Virus record (IMG/VR): IMGVR_UViG_3300042894_006198
Location: 1 to 64,000 of that record
Length of the DNA stretch: 64,000 bases
Reading direction: 5' to 3' (one strand)
From: a virus
Each line of letters starts with the position of its first letter. Position 1 is the first letter of the stretch. Below are positions 27,821 to 62,800 of the stretch, piece by piece. The translations under genes and the position numbers were made by a program. The notes beneath the pieces are model-generated. The model saw only the letters and a program-made list of their open reading frames with translations, made no database searches and was not told the DNA's origin.

Positions 27821-27828
27821 TATTTATA
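27821..27828 (-). promoter_or_regulatory. T4-type late promoter TATAAATA
   Basis: Exact consensus 4 nt upstream of portal ATG; (A/C/G)TAAATA variants precede genes at 5519, 11221, 18131, 18170, 19471, 21691, 25715, 26057, 37387, 46351, 46808, 50796. Confidence 0.85.
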
Positions 27829-30995: not shown

Positions 30996-31817
30996 ATGGA
31001 AAACAACCCACTAAAGCAGTATTTTAGAAGACCTGCTATACATATTCGTTTGCCAAGCAATCATCAATACACATCTGACGTGGTTGATTTTCCACCAACA
31101 GGAGAGTTACCTGTATACCCAATGACAGCAAATGATGAAATTACAGCACGTACACCTGATGCCTTATATAATGGTTCAGCAGTAGTTTCTATTGTCCAAA
31201 GCTGTGTTCCTTCTATTAAAAATCCTTGGGCTTTACTAAATTCTGACTTAGAAACCATACTAATTTCCATAAGAATTGCTACTAACGGTGATGAAATGGA
31301 TGTTGATACTACGTGCCCTAATTGTAAAAACTCTAATCGGTATGGTATCAACCTTAGTAAATTATTATCAACAATTACTATTGGCAATTATAACGAAGAA
31401 CTAGTAGTTGGAGATTTAGCAATAAAGTTTCGTTCTATTACCTATCAAGATAACAACACTGCAAGTGCTGAACAATTTGAAATACAACGTGGACTAGCAC
31501 AATTAGAAAACTTTGAAGATGGTGAGGCTAAGAATAAGGCAGCAAGTGAATTATTAGTACGTATGAACACACTTACACAGAAAATACTTGCTAGAAATAT
31601 TGAATATATTAGAACACCTGAAACATCAGTAGCTAATCAACCATTTATTTTAGACTTTTTACAGAATTGTGATAAAAAAATGTATGATTTAATACGTGAT
31701 CACAATATTGAGTTACGTGAAAGTAGTCAATCTAAGCCACTAAGGTTTAAGTGTGTTAGTTGTCAACATGAATATGATCAAACCATAACATTTAGTGTTA
31801 CCGATTTTTTCGAATGA
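30996..31817 (+). CDS. Baseplate hub assembly / tail-assembly-chaperone-like protein (gp26-like)
   Basis: NPLKQYFRRP..LPS, PMTANDEI, ILISIRIATNG, CPNC and CVSC Zn motifs, ends DFF. Confidence 0.7.
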   Translation: MENNPLKQYFRRPAIHIRLPSNHQYTSDVVDFPPTGELPVYPMTANDEITARTPDALYNGSAVVSIVQSCVPSIKNPWALLNSDLETILISIRIATNGDEMDVDTTCPNCKNSNRYGINLSKLLSTITIGNYNEELVVGDLAIKFRSITYQDNNTASAEQFEIQRGLAQLENFEDGEAKNKAASELLVRMNTLTQKILARNIEYIRTPETSVANQPFILDFLQNCDKKMYDLIRDHNIELRESSQSKPLRFKCVSCQHEYDQTITFSVTDFFE

Positions 31818-31854
31818 GGCTTCTCTATCTGTCTCAAGATGACATAGAGAAGCT
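31805..31854 (+). other. Putative -1 programmed ribosomal frameshift signal
   Basis: In-frame T TTT TTC (31805-31811), 6-nt spacer, hairpin GGCTTCTCTAT/ATAGAGAAGCT (31818-31828/31844-31854). Confidence 0.7.
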
Positions 31855-32041
31855 AGTAAAAACCTACGAAGACGAAGTTACTACCATCAAACGCAATGCA
31901 TTAAAAGCTGCATGGTACATGCGTGGCTCATTATCATATGTTGATGCCATGAATCTTTCACCATCTGAGACTAGTATTATTAACAAGTTGATTGATGAAA
32001 ATCTAGAAGTTACTAAGAAAAGTGGATTACCATTCTTTTAA
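31814..32041 (+). CDS. Small gp51-like ORF; probable -1 frame extension of the upstream protein
   Basis: ATGA overlap, WYMRGSLSY motif, no Shine-Dalgarno, lies in the -1 frame of 30996..31817. Confidence 0.7.
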   Translation: MRLLYLSQDDIEKLVKTYEDEVTTIKRNALKAAWYMRGSLSYVDAMNLSPSETSIINKLIDENLEVTKKSGLPFF

Positions 32042-32111
32042 GATGACCTAACGGTCATCTATTCGTGTACTAGCTTACGCTATCGCTACAGCTACGTACA
32101 CTCATTTTTTT
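32041..32111. repeat. Tandem hairpins; second may be the + strand terminator
   Basis: AGATGACC-TAAC-GGTCATCT (32041-32060); GTGTAC.TAGCT..GC-TATC-GC..AGCTA.GTACAC (32065-32101) then T7. Confidence 0.7.
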
Positions 32112-32144
32112 CTATTATTATTTTTTTGCCTATTTCTTTTTTGC

Positions 32145-32618
32145 AAAAAGGTGGATAAATGTAAAGTTAATTGCATATATCCACGATTTATAATCTTTCT
32201 TCCCTGCCTACTTGCGTAGAAGGTGCTCACTTCGTGTATTTTACTCAGGTAGGTTTGACTATGTCACCCCGAAACTTGTTAACAAGAAATACACCGCATA
32301 CACTGTAAAGTTAATAACCGCAGTGAGTTAGTTATTAACACAGTCTCGACCCTTTTCCACTATCATCATGATCGAGCACTTGGTAAAAAAATAGTATCTT
32401 TACCCCAACCTACTTTACAGTAGATCCAACTATTACGACAATAGAAACGTGATATACCTTGGGTATCCGTTTAAGCGTCCTTGTAACCATAATGGTTTTT
32501 CGGATAGTCTATTGAAGATGCTGTAGAACTCAGCTAAGGCATTGACCAACTTTCATCAGTTTACCTACGTTGCGTTACTAGGTCATGCAACCGTACCCAT
32601 TGTTCTATAAAACAGCCC
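32145..32618 (-). ncRNA. Candidate large structured non-coding RNA, family not recognised
   Basis: ORF-free; more than 10 nested helices; GCAA and GUAA tetraloops on the minus strand; 3' hairpin GTGGATA/TATCCAC plus T5. Confidence 0.6.
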
Positions 32619-33131
32619 TTAGTTTGAGACCTGAGAATGTTTTTTGAATATACCTGAGTTGAGAGTGAAAAATGTGTCTAATTCTGAGATAATCCATACA
32701 CCGTAATCAGGACTTTTATATACCATATAACTTGGTACATCCCACTTTACAGTGTCTTGGACAGCAATGTAACGACCTTTATGATTAAATTTCATAAACA
32801 GCACGTTTAAGTCATGCTCGTCGCTTACATCTAATAGTTGTTGTAACCAACCATTCAATACTTTGCAATTAGTTAGTAGTTGATGAAAAGGAAAGTCTCC
32901 ATAGTTTTTGCATTCAATATTGAGCAATGGAAACGACACCCCAGGTATAATATCCCCCTTAAAGCTGCGTACCTGCCCTTCATGCAATACTTCTTTACGT
33001 CCCTTATTTGATCCACCAACATATGCGCCACTATTTGGAACACGAATAAAAGATTCATTATACCTATCACTTAAGTATTTTGCAATCTCTCGTTCAAAAC
33101 TACTTCCTTTAATTTTACTTGCTGATGGCAT
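32619..33131 (-). CDS. Holliday junction resolvase-like PD-(D/E)xK nuclease (Hjc-type)
   Basis: SKIKGSSFEREIA, GDII, NIECKNY; directly after gp46. Confidence 0.8.
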   Translation of the reverse strand: MPSASKIKGSSFEREIAKYLSDRYNESFIRVPNSGAYVGGSNKGRKEVLHEGQVRSFKGDIIPGVSFPLLNIECKNYGDFPFHQLLTNCKVLNGWLQQLLDVSDEHDLNVLFMKFNHKGRYIAVQDTVKWDVPSYMVYKSPDYGVWIISELDTFFTLNSGIFKKHSQVSN

Positions 33132-33147
33132 AATCCCTACTTATACC

Positions 33148-35313
33148 CTATGCTGCCAAACTATTTTTTTCATTTGACAACTGATAACTTGTAAACCCAC
33201 CTTCTTTGACCACTTGTAGCACGTTAGTTACACGACTTACAAGCTCATCACGATGTGAGATTAACCAAACTGATTTGTCCCTGCGTCTGCCTAATTCTTT
33301 AAATAACATGACCGCATTTTCTACACCAACACTATCTAACCCATTATCAATCATTTCATCAACAAATAATAAGTTGATACCTTGGTATAAATTTTCCCAT
33401 ACATCCCTAAAAGCAAATGATAGGGATAGTATTAATCTTGTACTTTCACCACGACTAAAGTTACCATAACTTAGCTCACGACCTAATTCAGTAATTTCTA
33501 CCGATAAATCGTTTTGAAACTTCACACGATGTGGTAAACCCATCTTATCTAAATAATGACTCAAACGTGAATTCAAATAATTTAGATTTTGGTCAATAAT
33601 TTTCTTACGCAAAAAGCTTTTCTTATTGGTCAGTAAATCTAACAAATATTCTTGGTGCTTTAACATACGTGTTAAATCATTCAATTGATCATATGACACT
33701 ACCGCAATACTATTAGTCATCATGTCATTAATTTGCTCTGCATAAGGATCAACTTCTTCAAAACGCTTTTCTAACGCTTGTTCCAACTTTTCAACAGTGC
33801 TTTGATGCTTTAAAGCTGCTTCTAAAGTACTGTATATGGTAGTAGGCTTATCACCTAACTCACCTACCTCTAACTTTACGTTGTCATATTGTTCGTTTAG
33901 TGCATCAATATCATTGTCATGAAGTGTTGTAGTTTGTTGAAAATCTTGCTGTAATTTCAATGTTTTTTCAGATAAAGAGTCAATAGTTGACTTATGATTT
34001 AACGCTTCTTCTAATGTTTTATAGTGTACAGCAGGAATTGTTGGTATATTACCAATATCTTTAAGTATAGTATTATATTCTTTTGCCTGATTTTCTGCTG
34101 TACTTAATTCAGTTTTCAGTTCAGCTAAACGATCTTCTTTGTTTTTTAGCGTAAGCTTATGTGTTTGATCATGATAATCTTGACCACATGCATAGCATTT
34201 ATGATCATGTAACTTCACTAATTCTTCGTTAATAGTTGCAATTTCTTTATTCAACCGTGTACAAGTAGCATTGCTAGCATCAAATAATTTCTTAGTATTA
34301 TCTCTTGTAAGAGTTTTATCCTTAATTTCAGAAATAATTTTTAAGTTTTTAATTTCGATATTAATATCAATATTTTTTAACGCATTCATCTGCGTAACTA
34401 TTGCTTCTTTATTTTTCTTGTAAGTTATTACCGCATCATTATATCGTTTGTTTAATTTTGCTGTTTCCGCAGTAAAATGAGTTTTGGCATTGGTTAGCTT
34501 AGTATAATTTTCATTATACTTTGATAGTGTGCGATGTGAGGCAAGTTCTTGTTGAATATCAATTTTGTATAATTCAACTAATTGATTCGTATAATTGGCA
34601 ACATCCTCATCTTTTTTGGTAATCCATAGTGCTTGTCTACGCTTAAGATTATCAATTTGTTCTTGTATTTTGGTGTTTGCGTCTTGCAACCCACGTATTT
34701 TAAATTCTTCTTGTTGAATTTGATCTTTTACTGAACGATTTAATTCTTTAATACTTTCTGCTTTTTCTGAAAGTATAGTAATACCAAGTAATTGTTCAAT
34801 AATTTCACGTTGGTCTGCTGCTTTAAGTGCTAAAAATGGTTCATTATAAGTGTTTAAGGCAACAGTATGCTTAAACATCTCAGAAGAAATTCCAACAACG
34901 GATTCAATTGCAAGCTGTGTTTCACGACTATCTCCTTGACTTTCATTTTCATCTTCTGAGAATTCTTGCTCAGCATTATCAACATAAAATTTAAGTATAT
35001 TTGGTTTACGACCACGTTCAATACGATATTCTGTGCCATTTACCTCAAAGTCTAAAGTAACTAACATATGTTTACCGTTAGTCAGGTTAATTAAATTATC
35101 TCTTTTAATATTATTAAGTACGCTACCATATAATACATAGCACAATGCTTGAATAATCGTTGATTTACCTGTGCCATTACGTGCACCATCACCGCCTAAG
35201 TCACGATTTTCACCAAGAATAAGTGTTAAATCGTTGCGAGCAAAGTTAATATACTGTGATACTGCACCAACAGATAAGAAGTTTTTAATCGATAGTTGTT
35301 TTATAATTATCAT
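33148..35313 (-). CDS. gp46: Recombination ATPase gp46 (SbcC/Rad50-like)
   Basis: Walker A NGTGKS, Zn hook CYACG, signature FSRGE, Walker B LLFVDE, ISH. Confidence 0.95.
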   Translation of the reverse strand: MIIIKQLSIKNFLSVGAVSQYINFARNDLTLILGENRDLGGDGARNGTGKSTIIQALCYVLYGSVLNNIKRDNLINLTNGKHMLVTLDFEVNGTEYRIERGRKPNILKFYVDNAEQEFSEDENESQGDSRETQLAIESVVGISSEMFKHTVALNTYNEPFLALKAADQREIIEQLLGITILSEKAESIKELNRSVKDQIQQEEFKIRGLQDANTKIQEQIDNLKRRQALWITKKDEDVANYTNQLVELYKIDIQQELASHRTLSKYNENYTKLTNAKTHFTAETAKLNKRYNDAVITYKKNKEAIVTQMNALKNIDINIEIKNLKIISEIKDKTLTRDNTKKLFDASNATCTRLNKEIATINEELVKLHDHKCYACGQDYHDQTHKLTLKNKEDRLAELKTELSTAENQAKEYNTILKDIGNIPTIPAVHYKTLEEALNHKSTIDSLSEKTLKLQQDFQQTTTLHDNDIDALNEQYDNVKLEVGELGDKPTTIYSTLEAALKHQSTVEKLEQALEKRFEEVDPYAEQINDMMTNSIAVVSYDQLNDLTRMLKHQEYLLDLLTNKKSFLRKKIIDQNLNYLNSRLSHYLDKMGLPHRVKFQNDLSVEITELGRELSYGNFSRGESTRLILSLSFAFRDVWENLYQGINLLFVDEMIDNGLDSVGVENAVMLFKELGRRRDKSVWLISHRDELVSRVTNVLQVVKEGGFTSYQLSNEKNSLAA

Positions 35314-36326
35314 AGATTTTTATAGATATTGAGCAATAATTGCTTGTCAAACTTACCCTCATCAAGTTGTTCAATTTGGGATAGTACTATAGCATCAACG
35401 GATTCAAATTGCAAATTGGCTTCAAAATTATTGTCAGTTTCAATATCCACTCGTTGTGGAATCATAGTCATTTCACGCAATTTATATTCTTTCATAATTG
35501 TTTCCTTTATGCTGCTAGACTCCTCATAACTTATATCTGTATCAATAGTGATGCGTAAACACCCATTTTGAATCAGTAATGAGTCAGGGTTTTCTAAAAT
35601 TTGTGTTAAATTATATGTACGAAATTTAGGTTGATTAGGCCACGAATGATAAGTTGGTTTATCGCCCCATGCTAGTATCATCATGCCACGATCATCATCA
35701 TTTACATCACTATAATTATGCGGAAATGCGTTACCAATATATGTGATGTTTCCTTTTGTTTGGCGTTTATGAAAATGTCCTGTAAAAACATGGTCAAAAT
35801 GTTGTAGTTGATTACGATTGATTTCACCATGATCAGGCATTTCAACCATAGCATTCATATAGAATGATGGTAATTCAAAGTGACCAAACAAGTATTGTGC
35901 GTTTAACTTTTGTAATTTTTTATAATCTTCACCAATAAGCCATGGTGCAATGATGCAATCCCCATCAACAATCCAATCGTTACAAATAATAATTCGATCA
36001 AGGTGTTTTGCCCATTCCATACTCTGTACATCACGACGATCTCTATAATACAAGTCATGATTACCCACGATGAAATATATTTTTTCAAAGTTTTCATTGA
36101 GTTTTTCTAGTGCCCGTAAACTATAATTTTGTGTTAGTACATTAATTGTTGCACGATTATGGTTCCAATCACCTAGAAAAAAACATGTTTCACACCCATG
36201 TTTTTTAGCGGTTGCTATAAACCATTCGACAAATTGTAAGCAGTCTTCGTTATGTTGTATACTATTGTTCTTTAGACCAAAGTGTATATCGGTAAAAACT
36301 GCTGCTTTTTTAAATAAATTAGTCAT
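35310..36326 (-). CDS. gp47: Recombination nuclease gp47 (SbcD/Mre11-like)
   Basis: Metallophosphoesterase motifs DIHFG, LGD, GNHD, GHFE, GHFH. Confidence 0.95.
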   Translation of the reverse strand: MTNLFKKAAVFTDIHFGLKNNSIQHNEDCLQFVEWFIATAKKHGCETCFFLGDWNHNRATINVLTQNYSLRALEKLNENFEKIYFIVGNHDLYYRDRRDVQSMEWAKHLDRIIICNDWIVDGDCIIAPWLIGEDYKKLQKLNAQYLFGHFELPSFYMNAMVEMPDHGEINRNQLQHFDHVFTGHFHKRQTKGNITYIGNAFPHNYSDVNDDDRGMMILAWGDKPTYHSWPNQPKFRTYNLTQILENPDSLLIQNGCLRITIDTDISYEESSSIKETIMKEYKLREMTMIPQRVDIETDNNFEANLQFESVDAIVLSQIEQLDEGKFDKQLLLNIYKNL

Positions 36327-46343: not shown

Positions 46344-46365
46344 CATAGGTTATAAATAATATATT

Positions 46366-46812
46366 ATGGCTACATACTACGGATTTTCAACGCAAGAAAT
46401 AGGGCAATTAACACGCCTCACCGAACCAGGCAAAGACGGTGGCGTTGCAGGTATTTCCAAACCTGTTCCTATAACTAAAAAATTCACACTAGTTGATCAA
46501 AATCTTGTTATTCGTGATTTATTAAATGCTTTTAATATTAGACAAGGCGACAAAGTCGGTCAACCAAGTTACGGTTGCGTACTATGGAATTTTGTCTTTG
46601 AACCAAACAACTTAACAGTACTTGGGCAGATTGAAGATGAAGTACGTCGAATTGTTAATTCTGATCCAAGAATTATTCTAAATTCAGTTTATATTAATAA
46701 TCAAGAAAATGGCGTATTGATTGAATTAGAACTTGCCTTTACACCATTTAATACACCACTAGATTTAGGAATTCTTTTAGATAGGAATTTAGGGGTCGCT
46801 ACAACGGTATAA
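46366..46812 (+). CDS. gp25: Baseplate wedge protein gp25-like
   Basis: DLLNAFNIRQGDKVGQPSYGCVLWNFVFEP..DPRI; TATAAATA at 46351-46358. Confidence 0.88.
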   Translation: MATYYGFSTQEIGQLTRLTEPGKDGGVAGISKPVPITKKFTLVDQNLVIRDLLNAFNIRQGDKVGQPSYGCVLWNFVFEPNNLTVLGQIEDEVRRIVNSDPRIILNSVYINNQENGVLIELELAFTPFNTPLDLGILLDRNLGVATTV

Positions 46813-46833
46813 ATATCAATATAAGGACAACAT

Positions 46834-50825: not shown

Positions 50826-53800
50826 ATGGTAACTAAGGTACGCACAATCGATTTTTTGCCTGAAATATTCAGGACTGAGACTAACAGACAATTTTTGTCT
50901 GCTACACTTGACCAATTGACGCAGCAAAAGAATGTATCTGCCGTACAGGGATATATTGGCGAGAAATTTGGTTATGGTATTAGTAGAAATGACAAGTATG
51001 TTGTTGAGCCTGATAAAACTAGAACTGATTATCAGTTAGAACCTGCAGTTATCTTTTTAAAAGATGATACGCAAACACCACAAGACTTCATCACTTATCC
51101 TGGCATCGTCGATGCACTGCGACAACCCAATAATGTTACCTTAAACCCACAATCATTGTTTGAACAAGACAGTTACAGTTGGGAATCTTTTATTAACTAT
51201 GACAAATTATTAAACTATCAGCAGTACTATTGGTTACCGCTTGGTCCTGACACCGTGTTAGTATCTACTGATACTGTATATAATCGCAGAACCTATACCG
51301 TTATTGATTCAAATGATGGTTATCGCATTTCAACGTTTGCTCAAAAAAACCCAATCATCACGTTATTACGTGGTGGAACATATAAGTTTGTAGTCGATGG
51401 CAATGCGCCATTTTGGATTCAAGGTGTCCCAGGCACCAACGGAACCGAACCCCTATACCCAAATATAAGCACAAGAGATGTACTAGGTGTTACAAATAAT
51501 GGTACGGCAAGTGGTGAAATAACCTTTACAGTACCTGCAAGAGATGCACAATCGCAGTATATATTGCCTGGTAATCATACGGTGGATATTATTTGCACAA
51601 GTAATTATGATGACATAAATGGTAAAACTTTAGCAGATATTGGTGGTTCAATTGATGGTGTTACTGATTTGAATGGTAAAACTATTATGTTTTACGGTCC
51701 ATCTAGTGTGGCTAATCAAATTAAGTACTATCGTATTGAATATGATACAAACAATAACTTAACTGCAACAACAACACCTGATGCTAATTATACAAGTGTT
51801 TCTACCATTGGCGTAGTTGATGTAAGTGATATTTACGCAGGTATGGTTATTTCAGGTAGTGGTATACCATCAGGTACTATAGTAGAAAACATTATCAATT
51901 CAAATTTATACTTAAGCAATGCTATTACTGTAACTACATCAACTACATTAACATTTAGCAATAATCGTTTTCCTGTGCCACCATCAGTGTCAGTAGGCTA
52001 TAACGCAGCACCATATGCTGCATATGATCAAAATTATATTGATCCACTACAAAGTTCATATACACCCGTAGAAATTGGTTTTGATCAAACAATTGTATTA
52101 CGCTTGGTAGATATTGGCAATATTCCTACTATGGAAACTATTACTGCTAACTTAGGTACTGTATATCAAGCAAGAAAGTTCTTTAGAAATTTAGCAGGTC
52201 AAATTGAGTTAATACCATATCTTAGCGCACAATTAGATAGACTATACTATCAAAACGCTAATGATCCAAATAGTGTTGGTATTATTGAATTGATTGAAAG
52301 TAACGCTGATGCTTATATCTACATTAGTGATATTCTCGGTAAAACAAATTATACAAGTCCTAATAAAGTACAATTTACTAATGGTTTGAAAATTAGTTTT
52401 GAAGGTAATGTAGTACCAAGTTCATACGAGGGTAATGAGTATTATGTAGAAGGTGTAGGAACAGCCATTCAATTGATTCCTGTAGGTGATTATGCAACAC
52501 CTGAGATCTATACTGATCCAATTTTTGTACCTTATGACATGGAACCTTACGATACAACAGGATATGATGTTGTATTGAATCAACCACTTGATGCGGATTA
52601 TTTAACAATTAGTAGATTATCACGTGATCGCAATGCATGGTCACGTAGCAATCGTTGGTTTCATTATGATGTGTTACAAGCTACCTACAATTATACAAAG
52701 AGTGCACGTTCATTAGAAGATTTACAAAGTACAACAAATAGAGCAAAGCGTCCTATTATAGAATTTGTGCCTAATTTAAAATTATTTGATAGTGGTACAA
52801 AATCATTAGGTTCAGTAGACTTTTTTGATACTGCTACTACAGATTTATTATCTACTGTAGAGGGCATTGTACCTACATTACCAACTATAGCTAATTTTTC
52901 ATCAGCAACAGAGGCTATTGTAACCATTAATAATACACAATTGGTTGGTACTATTAATCCATCTTTACCTGTTACATTAATCGAAGGACAATCTGTTGTA
53001 TTACAAATACCTAGCACATGGCCTACAGAATGGCAAGTTTTAGATAATCAAATATATTATATCTATGACATAAACACGTCTAGCCCAACTGTTACTACTT
53101 TTAAATTATCAAGTGTTTCTACTATTGATACACCTGATCCTCTTGATACAAATGGTTTTACAGCACCATCAGTAGGCACAGCCTATGCAAGTTTTGGTGA
53201 GTATATTATTGATGGTGAAAGTGTATTTGATGGTGCTAGAATTATTGTAAGTAATGATACTGATGCTAGTGTACGAAGTAAAGTATATTATGCAACCTTT
53301 GTTCAAATCGATACAGCGGGAACTGTTGTAGCAAGTTTTGTTCCTGATACAGATGTTACAGTGACTAATTTAAGTCAAGCAGTTATTACACGAGGTGACG
53401 TATCTTATAATCATCTTGGACGAACATTTGTTTATGAAGATGTGTTGTTTAATAATGCAGGTGGATGGCAACAATGTCAACTAAAGACAGGACCTAACCA
53501 AGCACCCCTATTTGATATATTAAATGAAAATGGTGTAAGTTTTAGTAATACGTCATCATATCCTGCTACTACTTTTGCAGGAACAAAGTTATTTTCATAT
53601 ACAGAAAATAGTTCTAATCCTGATGATCCTGTATTAGGTTTTCCATTAGAATACACAAGTTTAGAAAATACTAGTGATATTAATTTCACAGTAAACCTTA
53701 ACGTAGATACATTTAGTTATACAAGTGGTTCAACTACTGTTACAGAATTAATCAATACAGGCTATGTTAATCAATATGAAATCATTGATGTACCAACCAA

Positions 53801-56800
53801 GCGTATTGGATGGGTAAATTCTATAGAGCAAAGTGTACAATATCAAGTATTTTCATTTACAACATCAGCTCTTAATACAGCAAACAATATTACAACGGTA
53901 AGATGTGATATTCCTGCTCAACCTGACACAGGATGGAATCCTGTTAAAGTATATCTAAATAATCGTTACTTAAAACCAAATGAATTTACCTACACAGTGA
54001 CTTCATCAGAAACTATTGTGTATATACCTAATGGATTTAATGATTTACCTGTTGTAGTGGAACTGCTTAGTGCAGAGGTTAGTCCTACAGCATACTATAC
54101 AGTACCTACTAACCTAGAAAATAATCCATTCAATGTCAACCCAACAACAATTGATTTAGGTGGTATTAGAAATCATTGGATTAGTATATGCGAAAATAGT
54201 GGATTAGTAACGGGTAGCTTTGTTGGTAATAATAATAGTCGTGATTTACCAAATTTAGATCCATATGGAAATAAGATTATTCAAAACAGTGCGGCAATGT
54301 TGTTGCCTGGGTTGTTTTTGCGTAAAGCAGGGTATAATATATTAGATGCGTTAAATTTTAATTCTAATGAATATACAAATTATAAACAAGTTATTGTTGA
54401 TACTGCTTATCAGTTAGATTTTGGTCCTTACGACAGCCCATCGACCATATTAGATACTATAGTACAGCGTTTAGTACAAGCTAAAGCAGATACTGCTCCT
54501 TTCTTTTGGAGCGATATGTATTTTAGTGGCGATCCTTATATCACTAACACTTATCGTTTCCGTAATCAAGCAAGCACTGCTACCTATACATTAAGTAGAA
54601 TCTATGATTTTACAAGTGCAAATTACTATGGTTTAGGCATTTATGTAACACGTATCATTGATGGTATTGCACGTGAGATACAATTATTGCGTGATGTAAA
54701 TTGGGTAACTAGTACAACATCACCTAGCGTAACCATAACCTATAGTTTTTTAGCAGGTGATGTTGTTACCGTTAAAGAATATAATCAAACTTATGGTACA
54801 TTCTGTCCTAATACACCATCAAAATTAGGCACCTATCCTGCTTTTGTACCACAGGTATTGCTTGATAATACATACCTTACGCCAACGTATTTTATTGTAG
54901 GTCATGATGGTAGTTATAATAAGTTATATGGTACATATATTAATGGTCGTTTAACAGACCCACGTGACATTGCACTGTTTGAGTTTGAAAATCGTGTATG
55001 GAATAATATTAAAGTAACACAAGATATTCCTATTGTTTATGCCGATGTAGCCCCAGGCAAATTCCGCACCACGTCATATTCTGAAGAAGAAATTTTACAG
55101 ATTAAAAATCCATCATTCTTAAATTGGATTGGAAAGAATAGATTAGATTATAGAACTAATTTCTACCGTTCAAATAACGCATTTTCATATAATTATCGTG
55201 GCAGCACAATGAGTATTGATGATAGTATCATTACTCAAGGCTATTGGCGTGGTATATACAATTGGCTATATGATACAGATACGCCAAACATTACACCATG
55301 GAAAATGTTAGGCTTTGCAGTACGTCCTACATGGTGGCTAAGTTATTATGGTGATGCACCATATACTAGTGATAATACTACATTGTGGACAGATTTATCA
55401 AATGGTTTTGTTTGGAATAATGGTGATAGTTATACTATTACAAAATATGTTCGCCCACAATTATTAAGCATTATACCTGTTGATAGTATGGGCAATCTAG
55501 TGCCACCATTAGAATTAGTTGTTAATTTCTATAATACGCTTGATTTTAATAAAAGTTGGTTACCAGGCGATGACTCCCCAACCGAAGCAAGTTATGAAAA
55601 GAGTAGCACTTATCCATTTGATTTAATGCGTTTGTTAGTATTGACAAAACCTGCACAATTTTTTAATTTAAATGTTGATCGTGATTTATATAAGTTTGAT
55701 GTTGAGTTAGGGCAATGGTTATACAATAACCGTTATCATATTAACCCTAATGATATTGTTGTATATGGTGATGGTACGCCAAAGCATAGTTATATTAATT
55801 GGGTAGTAGATTATTTAAATCAGCGTGGTATATCATCAACCTCTGAGGTACAAGTATCTTTACAAAATTTAGATGTGCGTTTGGTATATCGTGTTGGTGG
55901 ATTTACTGCTAAAAAGTTTTTAAGTTTTCTAGTAGAAAAAGCAAGCACTAATAGTGCAAACACAGGATTATTGATTCCTGATGATAGTTATAACATATTA
56001 TTGTATGATAACGTGCCATTTGATAAGATTACTTGGTCTAGTGTGGTTGTACAAAAAACTGAAAAAGGATATTCAGTTTGGGGTAATAGTTTAACACAAA
56101 GTTTCTTTACTTGTGCTCAACCCTTAAACAACAATTACAAAGAAGTTGTTAGTTATGGTGATTATCGTGTCAGCGTAAGTACAGGATTTAGTAAAACACA
56201 AACTTACATTGTGCCTTATGGTACAGAATTTTATAGTTTAGAAGGTGTAGCTGAATTTTTAGTGCGTTATGGCGCACACTTAGCCAATCAAGGTATGTTG
56301 TTTGTTAACATATTTGATGGGGTAGAATATAATTGGACACAAATGGTTGCTGAGTTTTTATATTGGCAATCACAAAAATGGTCAGTGGGTAGTTTAATTA
56401 ATCTTAACCCTAATAGCCAACGTTTAAGTATTAACAAAGATAATTTTATTGTACAACCATTAACTTTACAACAAAGTAATTTTGTACTTGATCAAAACAT
56501 GTCGCCTATCAAACCAACGAATATGATGATTAATCGTGATGGCACTGCTTTTGAGTTACAAGTAAAAAATGTTGGTGATACTTTAGCTTATTCTGTTTTC
56601 AACATGTCAAATATTGAACATGCTATTGTGTTTGATAATATTACATTGTTTAATGACGTTATCTATAACGTATCAATTGGTTTACGTCAAGAACGTATTT
56701 TAATGAAAGGATATGTTACTGCTGAGTGGAATGGCTATGTTGATGCACAAGGATTTTTATTAAATCAAAATAATGTACAAGAATGGCAATCAAATATCAA

Positions 56801-59800
56801 GTATTCAAAGGGACAAATTGTTACTTATAAAGGACAATATTGGGTTGCATCTGAAATTATTGAACCTAACGCAAACTTTAATCAAGAACAATGGATAAAG
56901 AGTGATTATGAATCTGTACAAACAGGATTATTAGCTAACCCTAGCACTGAAGCTGCGGAAGCATTGTCTTTTTACAATACCAACGTTGCTGCATTAAATG
57001 AAGATACTGATTTATTATCATTTAGTTTAATTGGTTTTAGACCACGTGAGTACATGGCAGCAGCAGATTTAAGCAATATTAGCCAAGTTAATATCTATAA
57101 AAACTTTATTAAACAAAAAGGCACTAATATTATTGCTAATACGTTCAAACGTGCTGAATTTGCACAAGGACAAATTGACTACGATATTTACGAAAATTGG
57201 GCAATTAAGAGTGGTGAATTTGGCGCAGTAAACAGTAGTAATTTCGTTGAAACATTATTAATTGAGGCAGACTTAAACAGTAACCCAACGATTATAGGAT
57301 TTACTGATAGTAACATTACCTCGGTTAATGGTGCTCAACAAAATACAAACATCAATGAATTAATTAATTGGGACAGAAAACCTTCTACTGCTAATTTCTT
57401 GCCACCTATGATATCAAATTATACGGTGCAGCAGGGTATACCCACAGCAGGTTATGTTAATTATGATGATGTTGAAATTACTTCATATACTTACGAAGGT
57501 TTAAATGATTTAACAACCACTGTACAAAATATGTACTATGGTGATTATATATGGTTGGCTGATTATTTAAGTACATGGAATGTAAGCACACCATTAAGTG
57601 TTGGCGCAGTAGTTGTATTATTACAAAATAATTTAAACAGTACATGCACGTTAACTTTTGATAAGCCACACGGTTTAGTAAAGAATCAACGTTTCAGCGT
57701 AGTTGGTTTTAATAGCGAAGTAGATGGATATTATATAGTAAACACGGTATTATCACTTAATTCAGTACTCATTAATTTAATACTGCCAAACAATATTCGT
57801 ACCATTGAAGGTGTAGGTATTGCTTTTAAGTTTCAGAATCATCGTGTTACACAGCCAAGTGCAGCTAATAATTTCCCTATTGCAGGTAATGAGTTTACTA
57901 GAAAGAAAATTTGGGCAGATGAAAACGGTCCTGAGCCTGATAAACAGTGGGCAGTATGGGAAAGTGTTCCCGTATTTCAACTTACCACATTAACAAGCAC
58001 TGCTAGTAGTGGACAAACAGGCGCAGTTGCCTATAATTCTACTGTAGGCTCAGTGGTTGCTTATGCAGGTTATGTTCGTGTATTCCCATTAATTGGTTCA
58101 CCTTATAATCTACTATCATCTTCTAGTGTAACAGCTATTGCTGTGGCAGGAAGTTATATTTTTACAGTAAGTGGCACAACCCTAAGAATTTATAATGCAC
58201 CAACAACTACAGCAGTACAAACAATAACGTTAAGTAATACATGTACAAGTATTGACACAAGTGCAACAGGAACTATTGTATATGTTGGTAGCCCAAGCAC
58301 GAATAATGTTTACCAATATGTTAACACAGGTGCATCTTGGGTAGCAGGTGCAACAATTACTACACCTAGCGCAAGTGGCAGTGTAGGTGCTGTATTAGGG
58401 TTTGGTACATCTGTTACATGTAGTAATCAAGGTAATAAGTTATTTGTAGGCGCACCAACGTCAACTATTAGTGGTATTACACAAGCAGGTGCTGTATATG
58501 CGTTTGATTATACAGGCAGTGCAGTAAATTTACAACAAACTATAGTCAACCCTGCACCACATCAAGGTGGGTTATTTGGTAGAAGTGTTTCTACTTTCCA
58601 ATATGGTAGTGATTTTATAATTGGTGCACCATTTAATTTACAAACTGTTGATGGTATTAATAACGTAGAGGGCGCAGTATATCGTTATACAAGTCCTGCA
58701 CAACGTTATGGTACAATAAGCGGTGTAGTATCAGCAACTTATCCATTTAGTGGTACCTTATACATTGATAACGATACAATTACTATTACTTCAGCAGCTA
58801 ATTTAGCAGGTATTGTGTCACAAATTAATGCAGGATTAACGGGTTCAGGTCGCACTGCGCTAGCATCATATAGTGGTTCAACGTTAACGATTGCGGTAGA
58901 TCCTGACTTAGTGGATACACCACTTAATTTAATTGACATTAGTAGTAACAGTGTGGCTACACTAACTGCTTTAGGTTTGACACCCTATGTGTTAACACAA
59001 ACAATTTACGAACCTTACAAAACAAATACATCACAATTTGGTTATTTGGTTGCGATGAATGAGCTTAATAGTATAGCTATTTCTGCACCTACAGCAACCA
59101 AACATGATTTAACTACATTTGATTTTAGTGATGATTATGCTAATAATGACACTATATTTGATTGGGGTGCTACTACATTTATTGATCAGTGGCCTTTATT
59201 TGGTGAAGTTTGTGTATACGATTATCTTCCTGCTGCAAATGAAAACATATTAAACACAGGTAAGTATGTTTTTGCAGAATATGCTAATGATCCAACATAC
59301 AACATTGCTAATTATGGTTTACAACCACAATATGGTAACGGTGGATTATCATTTAATAACAGTGTTATTACTGTAACTAGCCCAAATTGGGGTACACCTG
59401 ATGTTGGTCGTGTAACACAATTTACAAATAGTAATAGACAAACATGGAACGTTATTCGTGCTCCATTGGCTGCCGTTGATATTAATAAGTTACAGTTTAT
59501 TGAAATATACGATACTATTGACAATCAAACATTAGATTATCTTGATTATATCGATCCAATACAAGGGAAAATGTTTGGTGCTGTAGAAAGTAATATAGAT
59601 TTTATTACAACAAAAGATCCTGCAGGATATGGCATTAACAAACCTGCTTGGACAGAAGATATGGTAGGTCGTATTTGGTTTGATCCAAGTGAAATAAGAA
59701 TGGTTGATACACATCAAAGCGCATATGGTACACCAACCATTCCTGATAGTGTATACAATTCTAAATATTGGGCACAACCATTTGTAGGTAGCTTACCACG

Positions 59801-62800
59801 TGTATATCGTTGGACAGAAAGTACGGTAGATCCTCTTAACTACAGCGGCCCAGGCACCCCTCTCGATTTTGAAACATACGTATCAGTTACCGTACAAGAT
59901 AATAATATTAATAGTTTAGTTACGTTGTATTATTTTTGGGTAGAAAATAATCCCATTATTGATACTAAGATAGGCAAAACACTTAATACATCAACAATAG
60001 CATCGTATATTCTTAACCCATTGGGGTCAGGTATATCTTACTTAGCACCATTAGGTACAAATTCTGTAGCATTGTTTAACAGCACTAATTATGTTCGTGC
60101 TAATAATAGTGCGCTACATATTGGATATTCAAGCACTGTCAATTCAGATCAAAAACATATTGAGTTTAATTTAATCCGTGAGGGCGATCCATTTGATTTC
60201 TTAAATGGTGTGCCAAACACACGTCGAGTAGGTCAAGAAGAACCAAAAGGGTTATATCTTAAGTTTATTAATAGCTTTGCAGGGCGTAATATTTTAGGAC
60301 AAACTGTACCTGATACTAATTTGCCATTGTTGGTACGTTATGGAACAAGTAATATCTATCGTCAAAGTATGTTCCGCAATCGTGAATTAGCCCTACAAAA
60401 TTATATTGATTATGTCAACAGCGTATTGATGTTGTACCCAATTACTGAAAGTCGTGTTATACCATTTTTAAATGAGGTTGGCTTAACATGGGATACAAGA
60501 GATTTTTGGTCTTATGAAAATTATTGGGTAAATGGTTACAGCAATGCTACTAAAGCACAAATTCAAGTACAAAGTGTGCCTGAATTAGCCTCAGTCAATG
60601 CACGTGAAGGTTTGATTGCTTATGTACAAACATCTGTAACTAGTGGGAATGGCACATATTATAGTTATACGGATGGTGAATGGGTACTAATTGGTATAGA
60701 AAATGGAACTATACAGTTTTCATCAACTTTATATACTAACACAGATTTAGATGAAACTTCCATGCCAATTCGTTACATTGTTCGTGCTATTAATGAACAA
60801 ATCTTTATTGGTGATTTACAAATTGAGCGTAATCGTTCATTAACATTAATGTTTAATTACATCATGAGCGAAGCACAACAACGTAAGAACTATTTGCCAT
60901 GGTTGAATAAAACATCGTTAATCGACGTTTCACACACTATTCGACAGCTTATACCTTATGAAAAGTTCCAACGTGATAATCAAGATTTCTTAAGTGGTTG
61001 GTTAAATGAAGTAAAACCATATCACGTAGTTATTAAAGATTTTGCTTTCCGTTATGCGGGGCAAGATACTTTTGAGGGTGATATTACAGATTTTGATGTT
61101 CCATCACGTTATGTCAACTCAATGAATCAATACGAAAGTCCAATATTGGTTTATGAATTAACGCAAACACAAGAAAATGAATACTTACCTACTAACCCAA
61201 TATGGACAACAAGCCCTTATGTAAATTGGTATAACAATTATGGTCTTAGTATTGACTCAAGTGAATTAGAAAATTTAGCTATTGCACAGTTACGATTCTT
61301 TGTTGGACGTGATGCAACAAGTATATACATTAGTAATGCTTATGGAATGCCTGCAATTGGGTATATACAAATAAATGATGAAATTATTGGTTATAACTTT
61401 ATTGATTATTATCGTGGGCGTTTGGCAGGGTTGAGTCGTGCAAGATTTGGTACGGAGATTGCGACACATAATCCTGGGGCGGACGTGGTATGTACGTTTG
61501 ACCCTGTTACAGTGATTGAAACAGGACGAGCATATGCTAACCCACCAACTATTGATGTCGTTATTGATACTGCAGTATTTCCTGAGCCACGTGAGCAAGC
61601 CATATTAACACCGATTATGGCTAATGATCGTTTAATTGGCATACAAGTAAACGATGGTGGATCAGGTTATGGTCAACAACCTGAAATTATTATACAACCT
61701 GCTTTTGAAGAAACATTTGCCGCCACAGCATTTAATACAGGTACAAATCGTGTAACCTTAACATCATCAACAAGCTTTATCAGTGGCGATTGTGTTCGTT
61801 ATCGTGTTGAAGCAGGTAGTACACCTCCTATTGGGTTAACAGATGGTGCTTATTACTATGTTCGTGTAGACACAGCATCTAATAGTTTATACTTGTTTTA
61901 TAACAAAGCAGCAGCAATTGCTAGACGAGGAGATGTTAATTACGATGATGATCGTGTTATCATGTATGGTGGTGCGGTAGGTAATGGTCATGTGTTTGGA
62001 CAAACAGCACGTGCAGTGGCATTTACAACAAGTCGCCCAACACGTGAAATTAAAACAACAATTAAATTAGATCGTACAAGCTATCGTAGTACCATATCTT
62101 CATGGGATGGTTCCAACACTGCTTATGCAGGACCTTTCACTGATCCATTGAATATAAGTTCTTCATTATTTTTAGCAAGTGGTGAGAATTATGGTTTAAT
62201 CAGTAATAGCAATATTACCATACCAACGACATTGCCTTCTACAATTTCCGTTACTACAACCACAGATCCCACTGTGTTTAAGTCTAATCAAGTAGTTGCG
62301 CTAACTGCAACGTCAGTATGGGAACCTGCTACATATGGTAATGGGCAAACCATTGTTACTTATAATACAGCAACTTCACCATTTTCATCATTTGCCATTG
62401 TAGATAATCAAGGATTAAACTTTGGTGGTGGTGCAGCAGCATTACGTGGTGCAGCTATAAGTTTTGAAAGTGATGGTAATCCTGATTATGATTTACTTGG
62501 TACACCACAATGGAATGGTAATAATTTAGCTAATACGAGTAACGTATATTGGAAGAGTATTTCTAGTATTACATCAGCAGCTTTAGCTACTGTTACAACA
62601 ACCACTGATCATAATTTAGTTAATTGGCAAAAAGTATACCTTGCAAATATCACAACAACACCAACAAGTGGTAATGTTATTAATAATAAAACATTTTATG
62701 CTAATCGTTTATCTAACAATGCTTTTTACTTGTATTCAGCTAATACTAATAGTACAGGATTAACAGCTAATGGTAATTACACAACAGGTAATATTATTAA

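Follow-up and report, generated by a model that had tools for sequence, protein, structure and literature searches.

A large structured non-coding RNA outside the catalogued families lies downstream of the resolvase gene in a giant lake phage

Introduction

Large, highly structured RNAs are rare, and nearly all classes that are understood (the ribosome, RNase P, group I and group II introns, tmRNA) carry out sophisticated chemistry. The orphan classes GOLLD, ROOL and OLE have recently been found to build unexpected RNA-only assemblies.

GOLLD and ROOL are large multi-domain RNAs of phages and prophages, which were discovered by comparative genomics and whose role is unknown (PMC12286853). The Pseudomonas phage PA5oct expresses four abundant large non-coding RNAs, ncRNA001-004, which were detected by RNA-seq and are also of unknown role (PMC7318152). 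The IMG/VR motif catalogue of Fremin et al. 2023 (PMC10690425) holds elements of 29-151 nt only.

Here we describe an RNA, termed type A, from a 64,000-nt stretch of DNA of an uncultured giant lake phage (positions 1 to 64,000 of IMG/VR record IMGVR_UViG_3300042894_006198; hereafter the window), which shows that phage RNAs of 400 nt are still missing from current catalogues. GOLLD (RF01998) and ROOL (RF03087) remain the nearest described kind, as they are likewise large, multi-domain and carried by phages. They lie near tRNAs, however, whereas type A occupies a fixed syntenic slot of a virulent-type jumbo phage and is smaller than GOLLD. The four PA5oct RNAs are encoded at loci other than this slot. 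In type A, some short words and one hairpin resemble R, S and P8 of the group I intron of the T4 td gene, but this similarity is not significant, type A lies outside genes and its covarying helices contradict the group I topology.

Results and Discussion

The resolvase locus

The window is part of a 158-kb virus record with giant ORFs and T4-like baseplate genes; by SbcD, the closest cultured relatives are PA5oct (49.6% identical) and Rak2-like E. coli jumbo phages. A gap of 577 nt (32042-32618) is flanked by convergent genes, with the baseplate-hub gene and a 75-aa ORF on one side and the SbcD-SbcC-resolvase block on the other (Table 1). A previous inspection of the letters and their open reading frames, here called the sequence-only reading, had singled out this gap as free of ORFs, and we found stop codons in all six frames and no other stretch of the window that is as ORF-poor over such a length. 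In every type A locus the resolvase C-terminus is complete and conserved right to the stop codon, which means that this gene lacks no exon. At the opposite edge of the gap, a hairpin begins directly 3′ of the stop codon of the 75-aa ORF and is followed by a second hairpin and T runs; this zone is most readily taken for a terminator of the hub operon on the + strand.

Table 1. Features of the resolvase locus and predicted elements of the type A RNA, in window positions
Feature	Position	Strand	Remarks
Baseplate-hub gene	30996-31817	+	Runs towards the gap
75-aa ORF	31814-32041	+	Runs towards the gap, ends at 32041
Putative terminator zone of hub/75-aa operon (hairpins 32042-32059 and 32065-32101, T runs 32102-32127)	32042-32127	+	Outside the RNA; read from sequence
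SbcD	35310-36326	-	SbcD-SbcC-resolvase block
SbcC	33148-35313	-	SbcD-SbcC-resolvase block
Resolvase, PD-(D/E)xK (PDDEXK_15, 'RusA-like')	32619-33131	-	Last gene of the block; Pfam and PHROG matches
Whole type A unit, leader word to end of terminator U tract, ~490 nt	32145-32636	-	Alignment A1, covariation, strand bias, identity to relatives
Leader word CUCAGGUCU	32627-32635	-	Overlaps the last resolvase codons in the window
5′ domain: UAGAAC (32602-32607), H1-H4	32519-32607	-	Largely invariant; where H3 and H4 vary, pairing is preserved
H1	32587-91/32569-73	-	Invariant in the type A set
H2	32562-66/32537-41	-	5′ domain
H3	32555-60/32545-50	-	Varies, pairing retained
H4 with invariant loop GUUCUA (32524-32529)	32531-35/32519-23	-	Varies, pairing retained
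H5 domain: H5 encloses H6, H7 and insertion hairpin	32435-32518	-	Compensatory changes in H5 and H7
H5, long-range	32508-18/32435-45	-	Compensatory A-U to G-C
H7	32466-71/32446-52	-	Compensatory C-G to U-A
Insertion hairpin	32485-32497	-	14-nt insertion in the window RNA and L002 only, missing from three relatives
H8 hairpin, GNRA loop (GUAA here, GAGA in L087)	32407-32426	-	3 pairs changed on both sides; loop GNRA in 5/5
Variable hairpin	32382-32404	-	Sequence replaced in all relatives, stem kept (alignment read by eye)
H9 CUCGAUC/GGUCGAG with conserved 18-nt purine-rich loop	32345-32376	-	3 compensatory pairs
H10, stacked on H11	32340-44/32302-06	-	4/5 pairs compensatory
H11 with conserved loop UAACUCACUGCG	32330-39/32310-19	-	2 compensatory pairs
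3′ domain: H12 and H13 enclose H14, H15 and invariant 18-mer	32225-32301	-	Compensatory pairs in H13 and H14
H13	32287-94/32234-41	-	3 compensatory pairs
H14	32275-86	-	1 compensatory pair
H15	32252-70	-	3′ domain
18-mer AUAGUCAAACCUACCUGA	32245-32262	-	Identical in 5/5 type A sequences
H16 hairpin, GNRA loop (GCAA here; GAGA, GUAA in relatives)	32207-32220	-	Stem covaries; loop GNRA in 3/5
Intrinsic terminator: stem GUGGAUA/UAUCCAC (32178-84/32151-57), U tract (32145-32149)	32145-32186	-	In 5/5 type A sequences, stem sequences differ

A conserved, structured RNA read from the minus strand

Five type A sequences, all from one small clade, were aligned (alignment A1: the window RNA, designated WIN, with L002, L003, L004 and L087). 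The well-aligned core (32207-32607) is 74-88% identical in nucleotides between the window and its relatives, which is similar to the 74-92% of the flanking genes. RNAalifold predicts 118 pairs on A1. We examined 111 of these, in 17 helices, and found 95.5% of the cells paired. Changes on both sides were seen in 24 of the 111 pairs, compared with 9.5±2.2 in column shuffles, none of 500 of which reached 24; in slid controls, with partners shifted by 1-3 columns, only 2-5 pairs showed double changes. Collecting syntenic spacers from related phages had been proposed in the sequence-only reading as a check. In the spacers compared here the covariation is well above that of the shuffles, although with five sequences from one small clade some of the changes counted as compensatory may be single events.

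Folding no better than that of shuffled controls had been named in the same reading as an outcome that would speak against an RNA, and this outcome did not occur. The minimum-free-energy fold of the single sequence is better than that of shuffles on both strands (z = -3.6 for the minus and -4.2 for the plus strand), so the folding energy by itself cannot choose the strand. The choice comes from the alignment. In A1, G·U pairs outnumber A·C combinations 85:4, which indicates that the RNA is read in the direction of the resolvase, on the minus strand. The RNAalifold consensus energy is -85.2 kcal/mol for the minus and -57.2 kcal/mol for the plus strand, and the GNRA loops of both hairpins are present on the minus strand only, as had been pointed out from the letters.

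No conserved ORF was found across the type A relatives, in which indels that are not multiples of three shift the frames, and a search of six frames gave no remnant of a protein. Recoding of TAG as a rescue of an ORF was considered and rejected: the resulting 138-codon frame exists only in this window and is not kept in the relatives, and TAG serves as a stop codon in the window. A reading of the region as something else, whether an element acting at the DNA level, the remains of a gene or a fold arisen by chance, draws on the fact that both strands outfold shuffles and that thermodynamics alone is unspecific, yet it has next to no probability against the G·U excess, strand-specific GNRA loops, compensatory changes far above controls and the absence of a protein remnant in any frame. 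We regard it as confirmed, from comparison of sequences, that the minus strand of 32145-32636 is the gene of a real, structured non-coding RNA of about 450-490 nt; with the conserved synteny and the lack of an Rfam match described below, the original proposal of an undescribed structured RNA on this strand holds.

Predicted secondary structure

Most of the individual helices proposed from the single sequence could be recovered in the alignment. H13 was among them, as was the helix 32302-18/32331-44, which corresponds to H10 and H11 together and carries six compensatory pairs, and the helix 32439-45/32508-14, which is part of H5 and carries one. A helix 32464-69/32501-06 shows a U-A to C-G swap, but it competes with H7. 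The stem 32382-87/32399-404 was retained as the variable hairpin, and the stems of both GNRA hairpins covary. Two proposals find no support in the relatives. The outer helix 32223-28/32374-79 meets a C·A mismatch in three relatives, and H12 fits better; for the long-range pairing GUAGGUU/AACCUAC, no co-change was seen, since its partner strand is invariant while the hairpin arm drifts.

In the 5′ domain, the H4 loop GUUCUA can pair with the UAGAAC at the 5′ end into a putative pseudoknot. The fold of this domain is ambiguous, and an alternative helix, GCAUGACC/GGUCAAUGC, may form instead.

Ends of the RNA and its transcription

A simple terminator scan did not flag the hairpin and U tract at the 3′ end; the terminator proposed for 32184-32145 is conserved in all five type A sequences. 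At the 5′ end, the leader word is present 2-3 times upstream of the RNA in the relatives, just past the resolvase stop codon. From the sequences, the leader (32629-32635) might pair with ACCUGAG (32244-32250) and so form a closing helix of the molecule. In L002 the two strands read UUUAGGU and ACCUGAA, a C-G to U-A swap, and L087 fits solely through an upstream copy of the leader. This helix is tentative because one compensatory swap speaks for it and one sequence fits poorly.

Every type A locus has two or three direct copies of CTMAGGKMT right before the RNA core (in the window at 32614-32660, minus strand). Judged by sequence, a protein may bind here, or the copies may act as a promoter element or as alternative closing strands. 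The word TMAGGTCT was rejected as a general promoter word, as its two matches in the window are at chance level and it is not enriched elsewhere in the window.

Conservation of the type A sequence sets in at the resolvase stop codon or ahead of it, and a scan of the stretch between the resolvase and the RNA gave no sigma-70-like promoter. On these grounds we infer that the RNA is likely co-transcribed with the resolvase or the whole SbcD-SbcC-resolvase block. The co-transcription with gp47-gp46-resolvase that the sequence-only reading had put forward is plausible to the same extent.

Comparison with known RNA families

Scanning of the region with Rfam 15 (cmscan, 4227 families), as the first inspection had advised, gave no match at the gathering score; with the threshold relaxed to E<=10, nothing but noise appeared. 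Neither GOLLD nor ROOL matched by covariance model at E<=10. For RNase P RNA, RF00010 and related models detected nothing at E<=10, neither in the region nor anywhere in the genome, while they do match 11 of 14 control genomes. ARAGORN called no tRNA or tmRNA in the window, nor did it in 60 slot sequences, in line with the earlier statement that the element could be matched neither to these nor to RNase P. Polynucleobacter-1 (RF01718) has no match in the genome, and a twin-box feature (two identical co-varying boxes), which we sought in type A, is absent. By these sequence comparisons, type A is an RNA that fits no catalogued family.

Outside the window, ARAGORN calls a tmRNA at C1:86615-86984 of the record, with the tag peptide ANDETFALAA; the Rfam tmRNA model matches positions 86825-86905 of this call with 15.7 bits, which is under the cut-off.

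Relatives and the two RNAs of the resolvase slot

A search of viral contigs with the resolvase yielded 80 loci, of which 78 retain both flanks. In each of these 78, resolvase, gap, 75-aa ORF and hub follow one another in this order, and the gap is at least 423 nt long, mostly 491-536 nt. By blastn only three loci are similar to the gap of this window (73-86% identity), and a pattern scan of viral and genome contigs with the 18-mer added one new type A member, L087, along with six other new loci that are attributed to chance. No further member was found in a second pattern scan of viral contigs or in one metagenome scan; blastn of the gap against cultured phages gave no match, and neither a second copy of type A nor a copy of type B occurs elsewhere in the 158-kb record.

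All slot loci other than those of type A carry another RNA, type B, of about 355-370 nt. Type A is therefore the rare occupant, with 5 distinct sequences vs. more than 100 for type B. In 55 non-redundant sequences, type B has a core of about 360 nt that is closed by a helix between its 5′ and 3′ ends and contains many compensatory pairs; G·U pairs number 361 and A·C 28. In its 3′ domain 99.5% of cells are paired and 11 of 22 pairs are compensatory. The two RNAs have the same slot (resolvase stop, RNA, convergent 75-aa ORF and hub), the same strand and a similar size, and type B likewise has no conserved ORF and no Rfam match, with nothing beyond noise in an Rfam scan of type B loci and PA5oct. 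Unlike type A, which has a terminator and two GNRA hairpins, type B has the 5′/3′ closing helix and no clear terminator.

We compared the two types by nhmmer and with two covariance models, R1 for type A (built from 32205-32344, including the 3′ domain) and R2 for type B, which span at most about 155 columns. According to nhmmer, only a small hairpin next to the 75-aa ORF is common to both. R1 had no match in two complete type B genomes (352 and 364 kb), in 78 further metagenome loci, or in PA5oct, Ecwhy_1 and SCTP-2. R2 detects type B in 65 of 80 metagenome loci and, with filters off, gave only noise on the type A loci. On these three tests we rejected the reading of type A as a diverged type B. 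The resolvase of this window is 51-58% identical to those of type B loci, and type B RNAs retain about 65% identity even where the resolvases of the phages compared share no more than 58-65%. Because type B holds up to this degree, replacement is favoured over smooth divergence, and type A probably took the place of type B in this sub-lineage.

The hairpin 32042-32059 (GAUGACC-UAAC-GGUCAUC) is the sole element common to type A and type B loci. It shows a compensatory change between the types (GACC/GGUC vs. GAAC/GUUC) and is conserved to a degree that is uncommon among terminator stems. The invariant AUGACC of the RNA's 5′ domain is complementary to the 3′ arm of this hairpin.

Among the cultured relatives, the layout at the resolvase locus differs in PA5oct, and SCTP-2 is without a gap after the resolvase. 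In PA5oct (NC_071039.1, 75704-77180) the stretch of about 1.5 kb from resolvase to hub contains, besides a gap of 660 nt, only four annotated ORFs, each of 38-50 aa. This stretch has no Rfam match, resembles neither type A nor type B, and is not among the published ncRNAs.

Proposed role and alternative explanations

The explanation that we consider probable is that type A is the gene of a large, compact non-coding RNA of an uncatalogued class, lying on the minus strand, probably at the 3′ end of a transcript, and acting in trans. The SbcD-SbcC-resolvase block and the RNA would be read together; the RNA would most likely make up the 3′ end of the joint transcript, which would stop at the RNA's own hairpin and U terminator. 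The RNA is predicted to fold into at least 16 helices in four domains. Two of its hairpins are capped by GNRA loops, pseudoknots are probable, and long single-stranded stretches are invariant. The folded molecule may then serve as a protein-binding scaffold, as an RNA-only assembly or as a catalyst, and would be more than a terminator or an mRNA tail. The lineage of giant lake phages appears to reserve a fixed 'resolvase slot' for a large RNA, in which type A would here replace type B. A search for a partner, a substrate or a motif of known function for type A gave none. In our weighting the trans-acting folded RNA comes first and a cis-acting transcript tail second, followed by group I, pre-primer and nuclease-partner readings at similar, low levels.

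An unlikely explanation, but the one that survives best beside a trans-acting RNA, is that of a cis-acting 3′ element, a folded tail without independent life that blocks 3′-5′ exonucleases or insulates or terminates the convergent operons. The RNA begins at the resolvase stop without a recognisable promoter and sits exactly at the point where transcription converges. Moreover, unrelated RNAs take this one position in related phages, so the position itself may matter, which suits a position-tied role and would point to cis over trans. However, a stabiliser or terminator needs far less than this RNA offers, with its length of over 400 nt, its single strand of 18 invariant nt, its GNRA loops and its covarying helices, which number about 16. 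The RNA is also about as conserved as the neighbouring proteins, and a plain terminator is already present 3′ of it.

A ribozyme derived from a group I intron, free-standing or decayed, is very improbable. For this, GACUAU (32504-32509) and AUAGUC (32257-32262) would form a P7-like pairing beside a P8-like hairpin, and in comparison with the actual T4 td record, CAAUAGACUAUCC, GAYAUAGUC and the hairpin CUUGU-UAA-ACAAG do resemble R, S and P8 of that intron. Both words of the P7-like pair are invariant, so they offer no covariation signal. The genuine td intron, used as a control, itself has no Rfam match even at E<=10; the silence of Rfam therefore says little about group I, and the absence of an RF00028 match in the genome is a weak test, as td is missed as well. 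Evidence against this origin comes from the fold. The covarying helices H5 and H13 occupy the would-be J6/7 and P3′ segments, and the order P3-P4-P6-P7-P3′-P8-P7′ is not found. Only a local, non-significant alignment was obtained between R1 and td (E=2.9). Furthermore, no gene is interrupted, as the resolvase ORF is whole and no conserved ORF lies downstream.

Similarly low is the probability of a pre-primer in the manner of ColE1 RNA II, in which the transcript would hybridise to the AT-rich DNA downstream and prime replication. An A/T-rich tract with hairpins does lie downstream of the RNA, and recombination and replication genes adjoin. Yet in the five type A loci no conserved complementarity was seen between the RNA and the downstream DNA, and the A tract is naturally the T run of the + strand terminator. 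The cumulative GC-skew minimum lies at about 40.8 kb, at a divergent gene switch, and not at 32 kb, and an efficient-looking terminator of the RNA precedes the tract.

It is hardly probable that type A serves as scaffold or guide for the PD-(D/E)xK nuclease encoded next to it, or for SbcCD: the RNA strictly adjoins the nuclease gene, with its leader overlapping the 3′ end of that gene, but the same nuclease family occurs without such an RNA in PA5oct, SCTP-2 and many other phages, and no variable, guide-like segment tracking a target was seen.

A more far-reaching interpretation can be put forward, although we consider it speculative and doubtful. The resolvase slot might be an exchange locus for unrelated large RNAs with the same job, and type A a new ribozyme, a self-assembling RNA or a protein-scaffolding RNA that works with the recombination and replication machinery of the phage or against host defence. 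If this were true, type A would represent a functional class of RNA that is new, and not an ornate transcript tail. In any case, a whole lineage of giant lake phages treats one intergenic slot like a core gene, and the slot is filled by at least two large RNAs without alignable similarity to each other, of which type A, added by this window, is the rarer class. Two folds in one genomic context make up a natural experiment, in which the RNAs can be compared for a common partner, activity or assembly state.

Further features of the window and the record

The T4-late-like sequence TATAAGTA lies just upstream of the resolvase start and is a one-mismatch version of TATAAATA. The latter is strongly depleted in the window, with 3 copies observed vs. 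about 14 expected. All three (27821-27828, 46351-46358 and 46808-46815) precede a gene start by no more than about 25 nt, a placement that fits a T4-type late promoter as far as sequence can indicate. At 50826-63998 lies an open frame that exceeds 4391 aa and continues past the end of the window. In the remainder of the 158-kb record there are several further ORF-free stretches (no ORF of 90 aa or more) of 450-890 nt, which may contain additional RNA genes, for instance at C1:123460-124347, 126087-126737 and 133481-134029.
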